Assembly: GCA_951406725.2 (NCBI GenBank) | Contig: OX597825.1 | Location: 70,494,001 to 70,558,000, forward strand | Direction of reading: 5' to 3' | Source: Octopus vulgaris | Taxonomy: Eukaryota | DNA: 64,000 bases | Shown here: in pieces, positions 1-57,443 of the stretch | How the letters are laid out: each line of letters begins with the position of its first letter | Numbering within the stretch: the first letter of the stretch is position 1 | The notes under the pieces: generated by a model | What the model was told of the DNA's origin: nothing | Seen by the model: the letters and a program-made list of their open reading frames with translations, nothing else | Database searches by the model: none | Made by a program: the position numbers and the translations under genes

Positions 1-65
1 CTTATACTTCATTTATTGTTTTTGCAAATACTGAATACTCTCTCTTTTATTCTTTTATTTTTTTT

Positions 66-417
66 TCAGTCATTTGACTGAGGCCATGCTGGAGCACTGC
101 CTTTAGTCGAAGAAATCGACCCCAGGACTTATTCTTAGTAAGCCTAGGCCTTATTCTATCGGTCTTTTTTGCCAAACTGCTAAGTTACAGGGATGTAAAC
201 ACACCAGCATCGATTGTCAAGCAATGTTGGGAGAACAAACACAGACACAAAAACATATACACATATATATATATATACACGATGAGCTTCTTTCAGTTTC
301 CGTCTACCAAATCCACTCAGAAGGCTTTGGTCGGCCCGAGGCTATAGTAGAAGACACTTGCCCAAGAAGACATGTGGTTGGTAAGCAAGCTACTTACCAC
401 ACAGCCACTCCTGCACC
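66..417 (-). mobile_element. tRNA-head SINE family A (other copies about 15566-15728, 21005-21150, 22325-22480, 39260-39420, 44253-44690, 53513-53670)
   Basis: Repeated ggctgtgtggtaag...ggttcagtcccactg head with A/B-box-like motifs and an internal (TA/TG)n tract. Confidence 0.8.
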
Positions 418-530
418 TATATTTTTTATATATATTCTTTACTTGGACTGTACCAACATACTTGGGTGTTTGACATCCCCTTGAAGGATTTTGATCCTCA
501 CCTCCTTTATATATATATCTATATATATAT

Positions 531-583
<53 letters not shown>

Positions 584-998
584 AGATACAAAATATACAT
601 TAAGTGAAAACTAAATACTATAATTTAAACTATATGCATTAAATTAAATTATTAATTAATTAATTAATTTATTTATTTATTTATTTAATGAACATCTAAA
701 TGAAATCTTATACTCATTAAGTAATTTATATTAAAAACCTTAATGTTAAGTAATATACATAATGTTAGTACAAGCTACAAATATTAGAATTAAAAAATAA
801 CTACTGGGGTCGATTTGTTCAACTAAAACCCTTCAAGGTGGTGCCCCAGCATGGCCATAGTCAAATGACTGAAACAAACAGGGAAGAATGATAAAATGAA
901 AAAAAAAATGCACATGAAAGTACATTGTCTAGCATAAAAAAGTTGAAATATTTCAAGAAGAGACTTATACATAAATCAGGTTGTCCAAAAATACTCAC

Positions 999-2258: not shown

Positions 2259-5132
2259 GAAAAAAAAATCTATTTCTCCACTCCTCTCTCTTACAACAAA
2301 ATGCAGTGATAATAATCAATGATATCAAGACATGATGCACCATGGGAAAATATCACTCAACAACAACATCAACAACGCTATACTATACATGCAAAAATAA
2401 TAACATTGAGGAAAAAAAGACCAAGGTAACTGGAATCATTAACAACAACAGATAACGAACCATAGAATATATATTTCTTTATTACCCACAAGGGGCTAAA
2501 CATAGAGGGGACAAACAAGGACAGACAAAGAGATTAAGTCGATTACATCGACCCCAATGCGAAACTGGCACTTTATTTATCAACCCTGAAAGGATGAAAG
2601 GTAAAGTCGACCTCGGCAGAATTTGAACTCAGAACATAGTGGCAGACAAAATACTACTAAGCATTTTGCCCGGGGTGCTAACAACTCTGCCAGCTCGCCG
2701 CCTTAACGGACCATAGAATATAGTGGAACAAATAATCAATAGTTATTGACTAACAACACCACAAGGTCCAGTCCTTGCTGCAGCATGATAGCTTGTATGC
2801 TTAACCCTTTAGAACTCAGATTACTCAAATGTAATGCTTATTTATTCCCACTGGTTTTGAATTAATCATGAGTTATCTTATAGCCTCGAGATTTTAACGG
2901 GTGATTATTTGATTTAAAAGAGACATTGTAGGGTAGGTGTCAGAGGTTGGACCTGGCTGATTTGAACACAGAGCAAGTAGAATATTTGAGAGCCAGATAT
3001 GGCCAGTTTAAATGTTAAGAGTTAAATGACCCAAAGAGTTATGCCTGTAGCGCACAAGCTGCTGGTAGGGCCTCTCATGCTGGACGGGTCAAAAGATAAA
3101 GGCCAGATTAATATGGACCACTTCTACCCAGAAGCAAAAATGGGTTCGCATAGGGCCAACAGTACAACCAAGAAAAACAAACCAAAGTTACAAAAGCATT
3201 GATGACAATTCAAAACTAACAAGACTCGAAAGAGGAAGTAGAAAAGACAGTCCAGAGTTGAAAACAGGAGAGCAAAGTTGCCGAGGGATTTCTGACAGGG
3301 AGCAAAGGGCTTAAGTAAGTCAGTGACTATGAAATGTACAAGTGTTTTGGATCACATGGCTAAAACCTTGAATACTTGGTGTATTCCTTGTAGAATAACA
3401 AAACAGAACTGCAAACAAATTTTTAGCAACAGAACCATCATAATAATTTTTTCTGTAATAGGCAGAAGAGAAGGCCTGAAATTTAGTGGGAAGCTGCTAG
3501 TTGACTATGCCAACCCCAGTACTCAACTATTACTTATTTTATTAACACCTGAAAGAGTAAAAGGAACTGGTCAATGTTGATAGAATTTGAACTCAGAATG
3601 TAAAGCTGGAAGAAATATCACTTAGCATTTTGTCTAGTATGCTGGCAATTCTGCCAGCTAGCTGCCTTTGTAATTTTTGGCACAAGGTCAGCAGGTATGC
3701 AAGGAGGGGCAAGTTAATTACATTGAACCAGTAATTTATTGGAGCCAATGTATTTTATCAACATCAAAAGTACAAAAGGCAAAGCTGACCTCAGCAGAAT
3801 TTGAACCCAGGACATAAAGCTAGAAGAAATGCTATTTAGTGTTAGTCCAACATGGTAATGATTCTACCAGCTCACTGCCTTTAAAGTTGATCCTAATGAT
3901 TCTACCAGATTCTACCAGAGTATAATGACTCCACCAGTTCACTGTCTTTAAACTTAATGATTCTACCAGATTCTACCAGAGTCTAATGATTCCAATAACA
4001 AAGGTTTCTAATTTAGTCATAATGCCAACAATTTTGAAGGAAGGGAGTTAGCCAATATCATCAACCCCCATACCAGATTAGGATTTTCTTCCATTGGCCC
4101 TGAAAGGGTGGAAAGAAAAATTTGCGTTGACTGGTTTACAATTCAGAATTTAAAAAAAAAGTTGGGGAGGGGACTACACTAACACTAAAAATTATACCAA
4201 TCCCCTACCATTAATTATGTCAGCTTTTATTATATTGATTACTTCAATACACATGTATGTGTGTGTGTGTGTGTGTGTATGTGTGTGTGTTTGTGTGCAC
4301 ATGTGTTTGTGTTTGTGCTTGTCCCCTCCCATGACGACTTGACAGCCTGTGTTTGTTTGTTTGTATCCTAGTAACTTAAGCAGTGTTTGGCAAAAGAGAC
4401 CAGGCTTAAAAAAATAATCACTGGGATTGATTTGTTTGACTAAAAACTCTTTGAGGTGGTGCCCCAGTATGGCCACAGTCCAATGACTGAAAACAAGTAA
4501 GAACATAGGTAAAAAAAAACAATCAAAGATATACACTATGTAAAAAGAAATATATATATAAAACATTTGCAAAGTTGTCGTCGCTGCCGTTTAACAGGAG
4601 CCGGCCAGGCTGGAGCCTACACCACACTTCTGTGTCTGTTTTTGGCAGGTAGGGAAGTAAATATCACTACTACTGCTGCTACAACTCCTCTTCCTTCTCC
4701 TCCCCTCCTCCTCTTACTACAGCTGTTACTAGTTACAGCACTATTTCTACCGTCATCACAACAACAGCATGAACAATCTCTAGTACACTACTAATACTAC
4801 TGCTACTGCAACTGTCGTTGTTGCATCAACTACTACAACTATTGGTGATGCTACCACCACAACTACCATCACCACTACCATCAATGCCACTACTACTAAT
4901 TATGATCTCTTTTGCAGAGATACACTGTCCACATTTGAATTGTACAGCCTCATTTGATTTCACTCCTGTGTATCAGTAGGATTCACTATGGGCTCGGGGA
5001 AAGCAAGGGAACCTCTCTGTCGTTGCTTGACCTGTAAGAAATAGTAGCCAAATCTCCTTCAAATCACACTCTGCTGTCTTAAACGACAAAGCGAGGATGG
5101 TCATGACTGGAATGTCTTTGATCATAAGACTG

Positions 5133-5862
5133 GCTGATCAATCAGTAGGGGCTGGTCAATCAGCAGGGGCTGGTCAATCAGCAGGGGCTGGCCAATCAGC
5201 AGGGGCTGGTCAATCAGCAGGGGCTGGTCAATCAGCAGAGGCTGGCCAATCAGCAGGGGCTGGTCAATCAGCAGGGGCTGGTCAATCAGCAGGGGCTGGC
5301 CAATCAGCAGGGGCTGGTCAATCAGCAGGGGCTGGTCAATCAGCAGGGGCTGGCCAATCAGCAGGGGGCTGGTCAATCAGCAGGGGCTGGCCAACCAGCA
5401 GGGGCTGGTCAATCAGCAGGGGCTGGCCAATCAGCAGGGGCTGGCCAATCAGCAGGGGCTGGCCAATCAGCAGGGGCTGGTCAATCAGCAGGGGCTGGCC
5501 AATCAGCAGGGGCTGGCCAATCAGCAGGGGCTGGTCAATCAGCAGGGGCTGGTCAATCAGTAGGGGCTGGTCAATCAGCAGGGGCTGGCCAATCAGCAGG
5601 GGCTGGCCAATCAGCAGGGGCTGGCCAATCAGCAGGGGCTGGTCAATCAACAGGGGCTGGCCAATCAGCAGGGGCTGGTCAATCAGCAGGGGGCTGGCCA
5701 ATCAGCAGGGGCTGGCCAATCAGCAGGGGCTGGTCAATCAGCAGGGGCTGGCCAATCAGCAGGGGCTGGCCAATCAGCAGGGGCTGGTCAATCAGCAGGG
5801 GGCTGGTCAATCAGCAGGGGCTGGCCAATCAGCAGGGGCTGGTCAATCAGCAGGGGCTGGTC
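5133..5862. repeat. 18-bp GC-rich minisatellite (GGGGCTGGYCAATCAGCA), about 40 copies
   Basis: Read directly from the sequence; explains the AGAGQS / GWPISR / PLLIDQ pseudo-ORFs. Confidence 0.97.
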
Positions 5863-6756
5863 TGAGGCTTAACAACAATTTCTAGAGTGAAATTTGGTTT
5901 CTGAACACATACAGTACTGCTGCAACCATTTGACGAGAAAGTATTTATTGCCATGCTGCATGCAAGTCTACAAAGAACTGAACTCCATTCCAGAACTAAG
6001 GCCTACACAGAACAGAACTCCACTTCTATCCCACTCCAGAACTAAACTCTGCAGAAATCAGAACTTGCCATCTGCTAAGATTGAACACAAACCCCTCATA
6101 ATGCCTTTACCCCAGTTGACCATGCTGAGTTAATTAACACTATCATGCAAAACAAATTAACTAATTAATATAAAGAGACTACATCAATAACAACCACAAC
6201 AAGTTGCATAATATCATATACAAAAGATGAATTCATAAAGGGATGATGAAGAGGGGAAAATGATAAAAATGAAATAAGGATGAAAATTTGATGGAATTTT
6301 CGTGTCAGATAACAAGAAATTTAGAGTTATCTCCCTTATAGATTTTTTTCTCTCATATGTGTGTGTTGCTAGTATTCACCAAGCTACTAGGGTAACCTCT
6401 TAATGGTCACCAGACCTGCAAGAAATAGCAGCCAAATTTCCCTTAAATCACACCATACCATCTATTAAAAAACAACAACAACAACAAAGAGAGGACACAT
6501 TAGATAATGTAGTCCAAGATATCCTTAAACAAGATAGGATGTTTATGGCTGGAATGTCTTTGACCACGTGTCTACTGGATCAAGGTTGACCTGGTACTAA
6601 ACAACACCAACAACAAAAACAGTCAAATCTGTAGCCCTTTCTATCTTAATATAATACAAAGAACACATTAGATAATCCAGTCCAAAACAGCCCTAAAAAC
6701 GACATGATGGGTAAGGCTGGAATGTCTTTGATTGTGCAAATATATGACTGAGTTGA

Positions 6757-12816: not shown

Positions 12817-12949
12817 CTGTGAAAATAGACAAGGGAAAGAATCATTCCAACAGTGAATGTTTGGAAAGCATTTCAATAGCATAATCCTAGCATATATCTA
12901 TCTATAAATATATATATATCAAAATAAGCAACAAGGATATCCAGAGGTA

Positions 12950-13038
12950 ATGCAGTACGATCGTTTCATGCAACTCCATTTAATTGAACAATGCAATCCT
13001 TACATCAATTGAAAATGCAGAGCGATCCTCAGCTGCAC
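12950..13038 (-). ncRNA. Type I hammerhead ribozyme motif (C3-G8, long stem II) in the left arm of a fold-back element
   Basis: Minus strand: GTGCAG-CTGAGGA-[long stem II]-GAAA-CGATCG-TA-CTGCAT. Palindromic stem III ACGATCGT, GUA cleavage triplet. Confidence 0.75.
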
Positions 13039-13278
13039 AAAGACATAGAATTTAATTAAATTAGAACAGATGGACACATTAGTATAATTATACCTAAAAT
13101 CTCCAAGAAGTTAAAGGAGATAGACAAAGAACATGCATCTCCACTCCAGCATAGAAGTTACTCTATGTTAAAGTAGAGACAGCATGTTCTTTGTCTATCT
13201 CCTTAACTTCTTGGAGATTTTAGGTATAATTATACTAATGTGTCCATCTGTTCTAATTTAATTAAATTCTATGTCATT

Positions 13279-13367
13279 GTGCAGCTGAAGATTGCTCTGC
13301 ATTTTAAATTGATGTAAGGATTGCATTGTTCAATTAAATGGTGTTGCATGAAACAATCATACTGCAT
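13279..13367 (+). ncRNA. Decayed hammerhead copy in the right arm of the same fold-back
   Basis: GTGCAG-CTGAAGA-...-GAAA-CAATCA-TA-CTGCAT. Stem III palindrome damaged by CpG-type transitions. Confidence 0.55.
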
Positions 13368-13477
13368 AACCTCTAGATATCCTTGTTGCTTATTTTGATT
13401 TTAATCACCTTACTTTGAAATTGTATGGATAATACCGTACTAAATTCTGGTGCCTCAGCTTAAGTACCATATTCATC

Positions 13478-18417: not shown

Positions 18418-18654
18418 TAGAATGGTTGTATACTGTCAATTTAACGTGACAGTAGGGGATTACACCACCACTGTTTAGCCCTAGGAGGCATCGACGCCTC
18501 CTGATGGCTTTGACACATTTTTTTTCCTGTGTCCTTATATATGTGTCCTTATAAATGTGTCGAAGCCATCGGGAGGCGTCGATGCTTCCTAGGGCTAAAC
18601 AGCGGTGGTGTAATCCTACTGTGACGTTAAATTGACAGTATACAACCATTCTAT
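18418..18654. repeat. Long inverted repeat (about 100-bp arms), MITE-like
   Basis: tagaatggttgtatactgtcaatttaacgt... pairs with ...acgttaaattgacagtatacaaccattcta. Confidence 0.9.
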
Positions 18655-21956: not shown

Positions 21957-22249
21957 TCATTTTTGGATTTGGTTTGCAAGATTCTTTATATGAGTTCGTG
22001 TGTTGAAGCATATTCTATTGTGTCTGGGGGAGTCATTTTCTTTTTGTGCCTTATTATTATGTAAAACACTCACCGGTAAAATTTCCATGTTTTTCTTATT
22101 TTTATTGTCCTAAAATTTTCGTTGCGTCTTGCAACCTTTTCAATAGTTTTAGGACAATAAAAATAAGAAAAACGTGGAAATTTTACTGGTGAGTGTGTTA
22201 CATAATAAGGCACAAAAAGAAAATGATTCTCCTCAGACACAATAGAATA
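21957..22249. mobile_element. Fold-back repeat, same family as 57213-57443
   Basis: Arms about 22012-22117 and 22147-22249 are inverted; hammerhead-like loop; homologous copy at 57.2-57.4 kb. Confidence 0.8.
22110..22146 (-). ncRNA. Minimal hammerhead motif with U3-A8 core variant
   Basis: Minus strand: CTA-TTGAAAA-G-GTTGC-aagac-GCAAC-GAAA-AT-TT-TAG, sitting in the loop of a fold-back element. Confidence 0.6.
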
Positions 22250-25936: not shown

Positions 25937-26046
25937 AGAGTATTGTAATTTGCTTGAAGCATTGTGTATTGTTTGTGAAATATAAAGTGTCTTGAATGGC
26001 ACAACAATGCAGAGTGGATTATAATAACTGTTGTAATTTAATTATT

Positions 26047-26250: not shown

Positions 26251-26450
26251 ACTTCCATGCTTCCTGAGATTCGCCAACACTACACCTGATTTTCTCCCTT
26301 CCATACACACACAAGCATGTATCTGACTCATACATTGTTCGCTTTCCAGACATTTGTACATTACTGCATATACTTTATATGCACTTTCTGACAAGTTGTG
26401 GTGCACCTGAGCACTGTATACAATAATTTCATTATTATTATTATTATAAT
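26251..26450 (+). mobile_element. Very short 3' fragment of the same CR1 LINE
   Basis: Near-identical to 19325-19520 including the (TAT)n tail. Confidence 0.85.
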
Positions 26451-26593
26451 TATGATAATATTTTCGGAATATAAAAATTCCTTCTTCAGATATTGCTAGG
26501 AATTGATCAGGTCACTGCTATAATCAGTTTTTTATAAAAAAATTGAGTAACCATTGGAAAACCAATTATAGCAGAGACTTGATCAATTCCTAG

Positions 26594-26640
26594 TGATATC
26601 TGAAGAAGGAACTTTTATATTCTGAAATATTATTATATCA
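26594..26640 (+). ncRNA. Hammerhead motif (C3-G8) in the right arm of a fold-back element
   Basis: TGATAT-CTGAAGA-AGGA-acttttata-TTCT-GAAA-TATTA-TT-ATATCA. An inverted copy at about 26452-26495 has lost its 3' stem I strand to a CR1 insertion. Confidence 0.6.
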
Positions 26641-29600
26641 GACTATGAATAATTAAATTATAACAGTTATTATAGTCCACTCTACATTGATCTGCTATTC
26701 AAGACACATTATATTTCACACACATATATATTGGCACTACGTTGGTTACCATGACGAGTGCTCCAGTTGATCCGATTAACGGAGCAGCCTGTTTGTGAAA
26801 TTAATATGCAAGTGGCTGAGTACTCCACAGACGTGCATACCCTTAATGTAGTTCTCGGGAAGATTCAGCTTGACACAGGATGTCACAAGGCTGAGCCTTT
26901 GAAATACAGGTACAACTCATTTTTGGCCAGCTGAGTGGACTGGAGTAATGTGAAATAAAGTGTCTTGCTCAAGGACACAACGTTTCACCAGGAATTGAAC
27001 TCACAACCTTACAATCACAAGCCAAAAATCCTAACCACTGAGCCACGTGCCTTCACTCATGTATATACACACAAACATATTCAAGATTCATTTAAAATTA
27101 CACACATACACATACACACACAATCATCATCATCATCATCATTATCATCCCTTTAACAGATGTTGTTTCATGCATGTAGGAGTTAGACAAGAATTTGTTG
27201 AGGCAGATTTTCTACAACCAAATGTTCTCGCTCTACCTGCCTGCCATCCTTTGATCAGCAAGATGGGCACAAACACATACACACACATGCATGCGCACGC
27301 ACACGCACACACACACATACACACACAAAAGGCTTGTTTCAGTTTCCGCTTGCCAAAAGCACATACATGATATTACCCCAGCCCAGGATTATAATAAAAG
27401 ACATTTCACACACCCCCATCCACCCACCCCAGGTCCCATGCAGTGGGTCTGCACCCAAAACTATGTAGTTGCAAAGTAAACCTGTCAGCCAGCCACACAG
27501 CTATACCTGCCTCCCCTACCTACTGCCACACACACACACACACACATACATACACAAATGTGTGCACACATAGCAGAAAGGATTGCTGATTGTAAAAGTA
27601 CTGCCTTAATCAAGCACCCATCTAACCTATGCCAGTATAGAAAAATGGATGTAAAAGGAACACAAAAGATTACAAACACAGGAGTTGAACCTGTTTCGAC
27701 ACGACTCGATCCAAGATTCTATGTTTTAAGAAAAGCAATTATTTCATGAAAGAGCCAAGAAAACCATTTATGTTTTTATTGCCCACAGGGGGTTAAACAT
27801 AGAGGGGACAGACAAGGACAGACAAAGGGATTAAGTCAAAATACTAACCCTAACCCTAACCTTTGGGCTGGCTGGTGCCCATTTTCCTTTGTTATCATGA
27901 GGTTTTTTTTTTGAGCTGGATTTTCTATGGGGAGCATGCCCTTGCTTACCCCCAACCACAGTTTCTAGACATGAGTGGTCCCAAGACCAAGGCCTCTACC
28001 ACTAATTTTAAGAAATGTGGTGAAGAACTAGCTCTGGAAGGCAGGGACATGTATAACTGGTATTTATTTAATCGACCCCGAAAGAATGAAAGGCAAAGTC
28101 AACCTCGGCGAAATTTGAACTCAGAATATAGCAGCAGATGAAATACCGCTAAGCATTTCGCCCAGCGTGCTAACGTTTCTGCCAGCTCGCCACCTTCTGG
28201 TCTATCACACCTAGCCTACAATGTCATCCTAAAAGTAAACGATCACCTCATCAAAATCTAAAAGCTACAAGATAATGGATGATTAATTCAAAATATTGTG
28301 AATAAATAAGGATTTCATTTTCGCAGGGTAATCTGAATGTTAAAGGATTTCTTTTTAAAATAGAAAAAAATTCTTTGGCTGCATTTTCAACATGGCATTA
28401 GAAGTTAATTAATGGGAAGATGGCTTCTTTACAACAAACGGAGCAAATAGCAAAATAAAAATAAAAATAAAAAACTGGGATTTATATGATAAGCATTATT
28501 GATTAAACATGTTATAATTAAAATAAGCAAATAACAGTCTGCAACAGACAGAACAGAACGAAAGTACCAAAGTAATTAACAAGAATTGCTAATGAAGCAG
28601 AAAGTTTCACATTCAAAGCAAGAAACCTTAAGCTTTAGAACAAGGCTCTGCAGATAAATGTTTTTGTTTTTTGTTTTTGTTGTTGTTGGTGGTGGTGGTA
28701 TATTGCACCTGGTACATTGTATTCAAGTATCATATCTATGATCAAAGGCATTCCAGCCATGACCATGCCAAATCTTTCCAATGTTCAGGATACCCTGCAC
28801 ATTATCTAATGTGTTCTTTCCTATGAATGTAGGAAGAGAGCTGATGGTGATTTGGCTGTTATTTTTAGCGTATTGAGCCACCACAGAGATGCTCTTTCAC
28901 TGGCATGTTGTTGTTGTTGTCTGCGTGTGTGCGTGCATGTGATTAATTCATGAATGAACTACTCATTAAAGCACGTTCATATCTTTCCTCACTTTTCAAG
29001 AAAATAATAGATATTTAACAAAGGGTGCTACCTCAAGGTCAGCAGCTCTCAACCATAACTCCCAGATCCACATGCGGCCCTCAAGCATGCTTCTGGCGAG
29101 CCCCAACAATCTTCCCTCTTTAAATATAAATTTTCTTTAAGTGACTTGCGTTTTACTTTTTTGAATGTGGCCCTTGTAAAAAAAATCCTGGTGTGGGAGC
29201 TAGCAAGGATATTAAGAACCACCACTCTAGGTGGTCAATCATCTTGCTAGAAACAGCAGTCAAATCTCATCAACTCTCATTCTACTGTCTCAAAAAAATG
29301 AAACGCATATTAGACAAAAAAATAGCTCTAGACTTAATATGTTTTGGTGTGGTAGTGGTGGGGGAGGGAGGGAATATGTGGGGATGGTATTCATAACAGG
29401 AACACATTTGTCCATTTCTAATTGTGACTTCACTTTCAGCACATCAGATCCCTCTTGCTTAATCGGGAAACAAAACATCATCATTATCGTTTAACATCTG
29501 CTTTCCATGCTGGCATGGGGTGGATGATTTGACTGAGGACTGGTGAACCAGATGGCTGAACCAGGCTCCAATCTTGATCTGGCAGAGTTTCTACAGCTGG

Positions 29601-31179: not shown

Positions 31180-31414
31180 CGATGAGTCTACGATGATAAA
31201 AAAATTTACCATCATTTTTTCGCATTTTTAACGCATTTTTTGCTCGGTTTATATAAGGGAAGTAACTCTCTAAAAATGCTTATATAGTTATTTCCCTTAT
31301 TTTACACCGAGTAAAAAATTATTTTGTTGAGAGTCGATATTACTTAGTTTGGTTTGAAATAAGGAACTTGATTAGCTTAATAATCGCAACTTAATGTCGG
31401 GTTATACTGCTAGT
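31180..31414 (+). mobile_element. Helitron-like 3' fragment flanked by a 59-bp direct duplication
   Basis: Ends in gtcgggttatactgCTAG|T; internal hairpin; 31121-31179 is identical to 31414-31472. Confidence 0.5.
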
Positions 31415-34388: not shown

Positions 34389-34949
34389 CACACACACACA
34401 CACACGCATACATATATGTAAAGAAAAACAACTCATCATAAAAATGTGATTGTGATATCAGATAATTAAATGTGTGAAGCTGTAACGACATGTCAGCTAA
34501 TCCTAAAGAAACTCTGGTGATAATTACGCATTCTTCAGCTTCGTTAGACTAACTGATGATCATGCATGAAATCAAATACAAACAACAACAATAATAATAA
34601 CAACAACAACAGAAAAAAAAATTGAGGGAAAATCACAAACCACACACAGACACACACACACACACACAAAAATAAATCACACTCTCACGCACACATGCAC
34701 ATACGAAAGAATTACTAAAAATCACCAGTGGATATTCCAACCAAAAAGAAAACCAAAGAAATGTTATTAGATCAAACTGAACACACGTCAAATTCAACTA
34801 ACAAATTCAACAAACAGCTTGATATATTATAAAAATAAAATTCAACTCCTTAATACACACATACATTCATACACACATACATATATATGTATATATGTGT
34901 ATATGATATTTGCACATAATATATCTGTATATTCTTTATTTGTAGGTTG

Positions 34950-35003
34950 AGGCTACTATTGGTTTCATGCTAAGAGAGAAATTCCTTAACAATTATCAAG
35001 CCT
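34950..35003 (-). ncRNA. Hammerhead motif with U3-A8 core variant (left arm of a fold-back)
   Basis: Minus strand: AGGC-TTGATAA-T-TGTTAAG...CTTAGCA-T-GAAA-CCAATAG-TA-GCCT. Confidence 0.62.
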
Positions 35004-35159
35004 GCCTCAAATTTAGGCAAGGGAGATAATAATTCAAATGTCATCCTCCCTGATATTCATTCCGTTTACTCAAAATCTCACATTATTTTATCACGATCTT
35101 ATGTGACGTTATCATGGTTTAATCCAAGATGGAAAAGAAACACCGATGTTACATGTGGC

Positions 35160-35215
35160 AGGTTTGATAATTGTTAAGGGATATCTCTCTCCTAACATGA
35201 AACCAATGGTAGCCT
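35160..35215 (+). ncRNA. Hammerhead motif with U3-A8 core variant (right arm of a fold-back)
   Basis: AGGT-TTGATAA-T-TGTTA...TAACA-T-GAAA-CCAATGG-TA-GCCT. Stem III ACCA-a-TGGT, GUA triplet. Confidence 0.65.
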
Positions 35216-35601
35216 TAACCCATAAAGAATTTTTATCCACTAATAGTCTTGAGCAGTCATTCTCATTGTTCAATATTAACATGTGTGTGTGTGTATATAT
35301 ATACACAGACACACGCACACACTCACATGCACACATATACTGGCAATACTAATAAAGTTAGTCAGAAGAAATGAAGGAATTGTTCCTTGGTTTATTCATG
35401 CACAGGTACAGAATGTTTTCACATTTTCCAAGGAAACAAAATGAGATAGAATGATATAAAATGAATTGAAATAAAATAAAATAAAATGAAATAAAGAGCA
35501 TTTACATTATTACATTTAAATTTCTTAAATGTATCAATGCATATATGCCACTTTGTTTTACTTAATTTGGCTTTATTTTAAATTCATTTCATTCCATTTA
35601 A

Positions 35602-35747: not shown

Positions 35748-35858
35748 TCATTCCATTTAATTTCCTTGGAAAACACATCTACAGAAAATGTGAAAACTTT
35801 CTGTAGCTGTATATACAAATAAATCACACAAGAACAATTCCTTCACTACTGACTAAGC

Positions 35859-35898
<40 letters not shown>

Positions 35899-42426: not shown

Positions 42427-42471
<45 letters not shown>

Positions 42472-42472
<1 letters not shown>

Positions 42473-42681
42473 AGGGTGTCCCAGAAGTCACGTACCATTC
42501 TGGTTTTCATTTAAAATAATTAAAGCATTTTATTCTATCATACTTTTTTCTGCCTGTTTTATTGTAGAGGGTGCTCAAATTGAGCATTTGCTGCAATTAA
42601 TTTCAATAAAGTGTTTTTGAAATCAAGAAGGATGTATTCTTTTAAAAAACCAGAATGGTGCACATTTTCTAGGACACCCTG
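42472..42681. mobile_element. Tc1/mariner-type MITE
   Basis: TA-cagggtgtcc ... ggacaccctg-TA termini with extended subterminal inverted similarity. Confidence 0.8.
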
Positions 42682-42867
42682 TATATATATATATAACAAA
42701 TTGTTTACACCTGGTAGTTTATATTTGCCATATCTTATATGTATTGAATTATAAGATATATATGTATGCTATTAAGGTTCTCATTTTGTTAAATTAATAA
42801 ATAATTCAACATTCTAATATCTGAAAGTTGATGAACAAACTAAATTGTTTCTCCATTTTCTTATTTG

Positions 42868-55842: not shown

Positions 55843-55903
55843 TTATCACTGATGAAGAGAAGGTTCTTATGAACTAACTCTGAAATCGGGTCCGATATGG
55901 TAA
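55843..55903 (+). ncRNA. Complete canonical type I hammerhead motif in a TA-flanked element (about 55597-56044)
   Basis: TTATCA-CTGATGA-AGAG-aa-GGTTC-ttat-GAACT-aa-CTCT-GAAA-TCGG-gt-CCGA-TA-TGGTAA. All three stems pair; predicted cleavage after 55897. Confidence 0.8.
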
Positions 55904-57204: not shown

Positions 57205-57212
57205 CATATATA

Positions 57213-57443
57213 TACTGTTGTGTCTGGGGAGAGTCATTTTCTTTTTGTGCCTTATAATGTAACACACTCACCGGTAAAATTTCCACTTTTTAGGGAAATA
57301 AAAATAAGAAAAAAGTGGAAATTTTACCGGTGAGTGTGTTACATTATAAGGCCCAAAAAGAGAATGACTCTCCCCAGATACAACAGAATATGCTTCAACA
57401 CACAAACTCATATAAAGAATCTTGCAAACCAAATCCAAAAACG
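57213..57443. mobile_element. Fold-back repeat, same family as 21957-22249, TA-flanked
   Basis: Inverted arms about 57213-57291 and 57309-57388, followed by the shared family tail gcaaaccaaatccaaaaa. Confidence 0.8.

Follow-up and report, generated by a model that had tools for sequence, protein, structure and literature searches.

Two inverted arms in the DNA of Octopus vulgaris, each with a hammerhead motif built on the core UUGAUAA, raise the question of what kind of element they belong to and whether this core is a property of a family or damage to a single copy. The earlier note had read positions 34931–35230 of the window (the whole 64,000-nt stretch that was analysed) as an independent fold-back family, with a second origin of the U3-A8 core and a recurrent U10.1·U11.1 variant. 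Our analysis suggests that the locus is very probably the inverted end of an old, heavily 5′-truncated Penelope-like element (PLE), and that its hammerheads belong to a variant family.

Alignment of 34936–35009 with 35229–35154 gave an inverted match with 64 of 76 columns identical (84.2%, E = 1e-17). Inverted arms, each with a U3-A8 hammerhead opened by U·U, were confirmed; the motifs lie on opposite strands, one per arm, and both point outward (Table 1). In the right arm the order is AGGU (35160–35163), the UUGAUAA core (35164–35170), a 28-nt helix II region, GAAA (35199–35202), CCAAUGG, UA and GCCU (35212–35215). Its helix II opens with U35171·U35198, followed by U-A, G-C, U-A, U-A, A-U, A·C, G-C, G·U, G-C and A-U. 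H17 is an A in both arms (A35211 in the right), and the predicted cuts fall after 35211 and, in the left arm, between 34954 and 34953. Position 10.1–11.1 is U·U in both, the usual type I pair (commonly G-C) being absent, and both hold the core N3 U4 G5 A6 N7 N8 A9...G12 A13 A14 A15.1...U16.1 H17 with a Watson-Crick 3–8 pair. Helices of 4 bp (helix I, open-ended), 5+4 bp and 3 bp are predicted in the right arm. The left-arm palindrome of helix III is broken at 34957, leaving just 2 bp, so the layout given for both arms holds for the right one but loses a helix III pair in the left. A descriptor (helix I of at least 4 bp, helix II of at least 5 bp) matched twice in the window, whereas 100 simulated windows averaged 0.02 matches; this chance estimate comes from a descriptor composed after the motif had been seen. 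In viral contigs, none of 37 core-plus-helix-III matches had a helix I of at least 3 bp; none of nine U3-A8 matches exceeded 2 bp in helix I, and two of six C3-G8 matches reached 4 bp.

Table 1. Features of the U3-A8 element and its surroundings (positions in the window).
Feature	Positions	Strand	Description
Left flank	34852–34928	.	Decayed TA/CA microsatellite; inferred target
Left arm	34929–35009	-	Inverted 5′-truncated copy of the element 3′ end; stops just past AAUAAA; tail-less
Left hammerhead	34950–35003	-	AGGC 35003–35000, UUGAUAA (U3-A8) 34999–34993, U·U plus 8 paired positions, GAAA, CCAAUAG, UA, GCCU
Inversion-junction hairpin	35003–35019	.	5 bp: UGCCU, 7-nt loop, AGGCA
Spacer	35010–35153	+	Upstream portion of the same element, collinear with the right arm only; fewer copies
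Distal helix I extension	35154–35224	+	35154–35158 pairs with 35220–35224 across an internal loop (constrained fold)
Right hammerhead, type I	35160–35215	+	Helix I 4 bp, long helix II, palindromic helix III 35202–35210
Tail	35230–35278	+	Right end only, ~45 nt; family depth extends to 35278
Right flank	35276–35335	.	TG/TA/CA microsatellite; inferred target

The claim that the arms fold into hammerheads held for the motif but not for the minimum-energy structure: in both arms other structures were more stable (right, −12.2 for the hammerhead vs −12.6 kcal/mol; left, −11.5 vs −18.3 kcal/mol), and the right arm folded no better than its shuffles (z-score 0.19). Helix III of the right arm, self-complementary at 8 of 9 positions, formed a predicted self-duplex of −8.2 kcal/mol, and that of the left arm one of +1.4 kcal/mol. 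No Rfam hammerhead model matched at its gathering score or among the 30 matches up to E 10; the E-value matches were microsatellite sequence against miRNA models and similar. The fold-back as a whole reached −122 kcal/mol (z = −13.8), and −121 on the other strand.

The anatomy of the locus extends further than had been described. The right boundary is not at 35230, as family similarity reaches about 35278, and contigs aligned to the locus start at 34929, the left-arm boundary. Many family contigs begin within the spacer, near 35114–35122 (~35118), and few near 35010; one contig record (number 19 of run X17) covered 35009–35130 with 22 differences. Tailed and tail-less family ends are both present, the latter running into TA repeats as contig loose ends. 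Some family ends enter TATATA; TA-type repeats are common across the whole window, which overall is AT-rich, microsatellite-rich animal DNA crowded with dispersed repeats. No target-site duplication was identified at the locus, and no PLE protein remnant (reverse transcriptase or endonuclease) within the 64-kb window, the 144-nt spacer included. The junction hairpin is a possible trace of self-priming or template switching, and may equally be chance. An open reading frame starting inside the ribozyme was dismissed, since the family AAUAAA supplies an in-frame stop. A second multi-copy inverted pair (35345–35428 / 35784–35869) adjoins the element; it ends in AAUAAA and (TTA)n, and no hammerhead was found in it. 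Elsewhere, 5132–5862 is a tandem array with a unit of ~18 nt.

Published accounts describe PLE insertions with an inverted 5′-truncated copy, a one-sided tail of 30–40 bp and a bias towards microsatellites (bioRxiv 10.1101/2021.04.23.441226). Copies are mostly head-to-head, with palindromes at the junctions (PMC3846280), and the tail corresponds to two start sites of reverse transcription (PMC11167929). The tail of the U3-A8 family, at ~45 nt, is slightly longer than reported. In the name 'fold-back family', the family part stands, but the fold-back is better taken as the inverted terminus that truncated PLEs usually have. It is scarcely credible that the locus is instead a MITE-type DNA transposon, with terminal repeats that merely resemble, or have captured, a hammerhead. 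Its inverted arms do flank a short spacer, and genuine MITE-like elements occur nearby, at 22011–22249 and 57210–57391, two copies of one long-inverted-repeat family without a hammerhead. Against this, however, the ends are asymmetric, with a one-sided tail, the junctions are variable, the spacer is continuous with just one of the arms, and the variation between copies preserves the ribozyme helices.

That variation was read from contigs of four of the 24 listed public runs (X2, X14, X17 and X10, the last possibly an RNA run), aligned onto 34690–35600 at 80% likeness, a threshold that favours copies resembling the query. The aligned contigs (316, 29, 228 and 366 for X2, X10, X14 and X17) cluster on both arms and also at 35341–35450, a different repeat. 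Summed contig depth in X2 was 2,500–6,500 over the arms against ~50 in the flank; no copy number was taken from it. The U3-A8 elements are a dispersed multi-copy family. Several contigs connect left-arm to right-arm sequence, so other inverted-pair copies exist, and their junctions differ, lying on the left side from 34943 to 35055. One organism F contig covers 34977–35228 and differs at 14 of 252 positions, and a second extends over the left flank; the insertion therefore probably predates the split of organisms A and F.

Evidence on variants comes from the best-supported 40 of 184 substitution rows, the ranking rule being unstated. Among these 40, C3 and G8 are absent at 35164, 35169, 34999 and 34994, and neither the core, the U·U opener nor GAAA varies. 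Five of the variants among the 40 keep or repair pairs (contig counts for X2/X10/X14/X17). At 35163, U·G of helix I becomes C-G (21/3/23/26), at 40–60% of depth and in all four runs; at 35192, A·C of helix II becomes A-U (39/2/32/37), the majority state in three of the four. The change at 35179 turns G·U into A-U (29/2/19/29), 35223 T>C turns G·U of distal helix I into G-C (24/7/17/34), and 34957 T>C restores the left helix III palindrome (25/1/22/28). Of the others, 35158 G>A would disrupt a distal helix I pair, the variant at 34958 alters the helix III loop, that at 34970 converts U·G to U-A, and that at 35183 falls where helix II meets loop 2. Eight of the 12 listed indel rows outside 35220–35221, including every one in the arms, lie in or beside loop 2. 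Contigs with loose ends at 35193 (18/4/17/21) and 34975 match the 3′ half only; their helix II region is different and longer, marking a sister subfamily.

These data bear on whether UUGAUAA is an ordinary CUGAUGA core decayed by two changes, either locally or in a single dead source copy. In favour of decay, each change is a transition, the genome is AT-rich, and the same scaffold carries C3-G8 elsewhere. The argument that coincident changes in both arms speak against decay is also weak, since both arms were copied in one insertion and count as one observation. Nevertheless, 35163, the position next to U3, varies at 40–60% of depth while changes at the core positions are absent from the 40 best-supported of 184 rows, where a C3/G8 majority, carried by dozens of contigs, ought to appear. 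The earlier note had offered CUGAUGA in other copies as the mark of local decay, and among those 40 rows it is not seen. U3-A8 appears to be the majority state among the copies aligned, perhaps with a minority of C3-G8 copies, and so a trait of the family, and local decay is very improbable.

The same contigs speak to an independent non-autonomous fold-back, moved as a unit by a PLE acting in trans, or to a retrozyme-like circular RNA, whose double-variant ribozyme would be active and under selection. Other inverted pairs exist, the 144-nt spacer has no protein remnant, and helix-preserving variation shows selection on the fold in source copies; two more hammerhead fold-backs lie in the window, and animal retrozymes have been proposed as derivatives of PLE pseudo-LTRs (bioRxiv 10.64898/2026.07.22.740005). 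However, the junctions vary as they would for independent truncations, and retrozymes by definition have at least two head-to-tail units, whereas the window has only two inverted copies. In addition, left helix III is broken, the arms are 16% different, and the hairpin would bury the ribozyme. Such an origin is unlikely, and the truncated PLE end is the reading carried forward here.

The PLE in question was traced through relatives of the hammerhead scaffold. Metagenome contigs were searched with a pattern that fixed the letters of the opener and of helix III and allowed either core; it matched at five loci (L038–L042). Three of them (L038, L040, L041), inside bacterial coding sequence, were discounted as chance matches. 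L039 and L042 both have the scaffold UUG...CAU-GAAA-CCAAUGG-UA with a C3-G8 core and a helix II built alike; helix I is 6 bp in L039 and 2 contiguous bp in L042. In L042, the stop codon of a PLE-type endonuclease end lies ~290 nt upstream of the motif, both being on one strand, and (AT)n follows the motif. The L039 motif is directly 3′ of a decayed copy of the L042-type protein, again on the same strand (tblastn E = 5e-19). CxCX5C was found in 102 of the best 120 of 549 relatives of the L042 protein. Viral contigs contained no relative of it. In Pfam, the Hydra-like L042 ORF had no GIY-YIG match, and the other L042 ORF had a sub-threshold one (E = 0.014). This second ORF end, GIY-YIG-like and located at 3–635 (+), is followed by its own hammerhead-like motif at 730–790 and meets the Hydra-like element tail-to-tail across a single (AT)n run; by its motifs we take it to be Neptune-like.

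Hydra-clade PLEs are defined by a CxCX5C linker ahead of their endonuclease and use (TA)n as insertion target (bioRxiv 10.1101/2021.04.23.441226). The truncated PLE at the octopus locus probably belongs to this clade, an assignment of moderate confidence drawn from a 13-nt motif and the helix opener shared with two contigs. We infer the parent element, since the window holds no Hydra-like protein remnant. When both arms, L039 and L042 were compared, 8 of 15 pairs changed on both sides, including C3-G8 vs U3-A8, where slid alignments gave at most three. The covariation that had been suggested as a check is present, but in four sequences, two of which are the arms themselves. Because the same scaffold carries C3-G8 in L039 and L042, and the published U3-A8 ribozymes of Schistosoma are without U·U, the U3-A8 core of this scaffold is likely to have arisen by a switch of its own. 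The proposed second origin stands to that extent, but not as a novelty, as natural U3-A8 is in print.

Further hammerheads in the window bear on the U·U opener. The 12.9-kb family (12918–13399) is a near-perfect fold-back (93%) with C3-G8 hammerheads and a 58-nt helix II region, opened by UUGC...GCAU in the right arm and by UCGC in the left; its helix III palindrome, CGAUCG, is intact in the left arm only. As had been stated, it stands apart in sequence, with no similarity to the U3-A8 family above chance: the local score of 22 was reached by 53 of 300 shuffles. The two families probably belong to a single PLE lineage. The opener, earlier called recurrent, is better read as inheritance within one PLE lineage, since descent is a simpler explanation than recurrence for a shared U·U and the opener already occurs in published PLE ribozymes. 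It does occur outside PLEs too, as a compact type I hammerhead in viral contig L052 (~1501–1539, −) has a C3-G8 core and a helix II that opens U·U, U-A, G-C. A third hammerhead fold-back, at 26423–26661, has a CUGAAGA core at 26600 (+) and an ordinary minimal-hammerhead opener; it is overlapped by the inverted pair 25970–26046 / 26648–26724. At 55843–55903 is a solo type I hammerhead with a CUGAUGA core. Its helix I is of 6 bp, and its 5-bp helix III may allow it to fold as a monomer. Other palindromic elements occur at 18418–18653, 31235–31319 and 42458–42695.

Taken as a truncated PLE end, the locus would have arisen by copying of the pseudo-LTR end only, as a sense copy with its tail (35010–35278) and a shorter inverted copy (35009–34929), into a TA-rich microsatellite. 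The type I hammerhead of the pseudo-LTR would combine a compensatory U3-A8 core with a helix II opened by U·U. In the parent, tandem pseudo-LTRs would place two hammerheads on one RNA, the palindromic helix III strands of the two copies would pair, and the dimer would cut after GUA and trim the transcript. Such a dimer cannot form in cis at the locus, whose two motifs occupy opposite strands. A read-through transcript, whichever side it comes from, would contain one ribozyme and its complement and fold into a long hairpin, burying the sense ribozyme. Most likely the ribozyme worked in the parent element and the locus is now an inactive fossil of it. What the parent gained from cleavage is uncertain, because in one PLE hammerhead cleavage was dispensable for insertion in vitro (PMC11167929). 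It is rather doubtful that the family is an active, non-autonomous hammerhead with both variants, whose sister subfamily in the same genome, seen in the 3′-half contigs, is still C3-G8. If so, a compensatory switch in the catalytic core would be recorded within one genome, and UUG...CAU would be diagnostic of Hydra-clade PLE ribozymes missed by standard descriptors and Rfam.

Each separate trait (U3-A8, the U10.1·U11.1 opener, opposite-strand pairs at 100–700 bp) is already published. Natural U3-A8 covariation, and U10.1-U11.1 as helix II opener and best tolerated mismatch, were reported by Perreault et al. (2011, PMC3088659); in the text examined, that paper describes neither the two in combination nor their occurrence in a retrotransposon. 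No ribozyme with both variants was found in the literature examined, whose figures and supplements may contain the combination. A study by Lunse et al. from 2017 is said to describe PLE hammerhead variants that cleave as dimers, and may already include the double variant. The main text of the Octopus vulgaris repeat paper, which gives 31 recently active Penelope-like families, does not mention hammerheads or ribozymes. The significance of the family is modest, as neither a new mechanism nor a host function is indicated. It brings together two separately known departures from the consensus, and so offers a natural test of stacked core changes. The U·U-opened helix II may be the mark of a single PLE lineage in different animals and might help to place orphan fold-backs, and hammerheads with this opener are a class missed by Rfam.

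The closest known systems are the PLE pseudo-LTR hammerheads of Cervera and De la Pena (2014, PMC4209133). These minimal ribozymes have a helix II of 7–8 bp, a helix I of 4–5 bp and a palindromic helix III, cleave poorly and slowly in vitro, and are thought to act as dimers in tandem pseudo-LTRs (see also the review PMC6765202); dual ones lie on opposite strands, 100–700 bp apart. The U3-A8 family is like them in being type I with a helix I of 4–5 bp and a long helix II, an extra nucleotide after A9, a short palindromic helix III and opposite-strand pairs, and unlike them, as far as that paper's text and alignment go, in having both variants together and a distal helix I. About 1,300 U3-A8 matches are given there for S. 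mansoni. In the alignment of that paper, U3-A8 is present in two of 56 rows (S. mansoni 3 and 4) and the U·U opener apparently in two of 56 (Hydra magnipapillata and Drosophila willistoni, as read from alignment text whose GAAA column is detached), and none of the 56 rows combines them; the published Schistosoma U3-A8 PLE ribozymes have no U·U opener. Non-LTR retrozymes (bioRxiv 10.64898/2026.07.22.740005) are likewise non-coding repeats with type I hammerheads related to PLE pseudo-LTRs, but their units are head-to-tail in tandem, whereas copies of the U3-A8 family are inverted and dispersed. Hydra-clade PLEs (Craig et al. 2021, bioRxiv 10.1101/2021.04.23.441226) have hammerheads, CxCX5C and DKT features, (TA)n insertion and molluscs among their hosts; the U3-A8 family differs in having no linked ORF, and its scaffold relatives in carrying C3-G8. 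The H. magnipapillata PLE ribozyme, from a copy labelled 'Poseidon, partial' in the 2014 table, shares with the U3-A8 family the U-UG...CA-U opener and a 7-nt palindromic helix III insert (PMC4209133).
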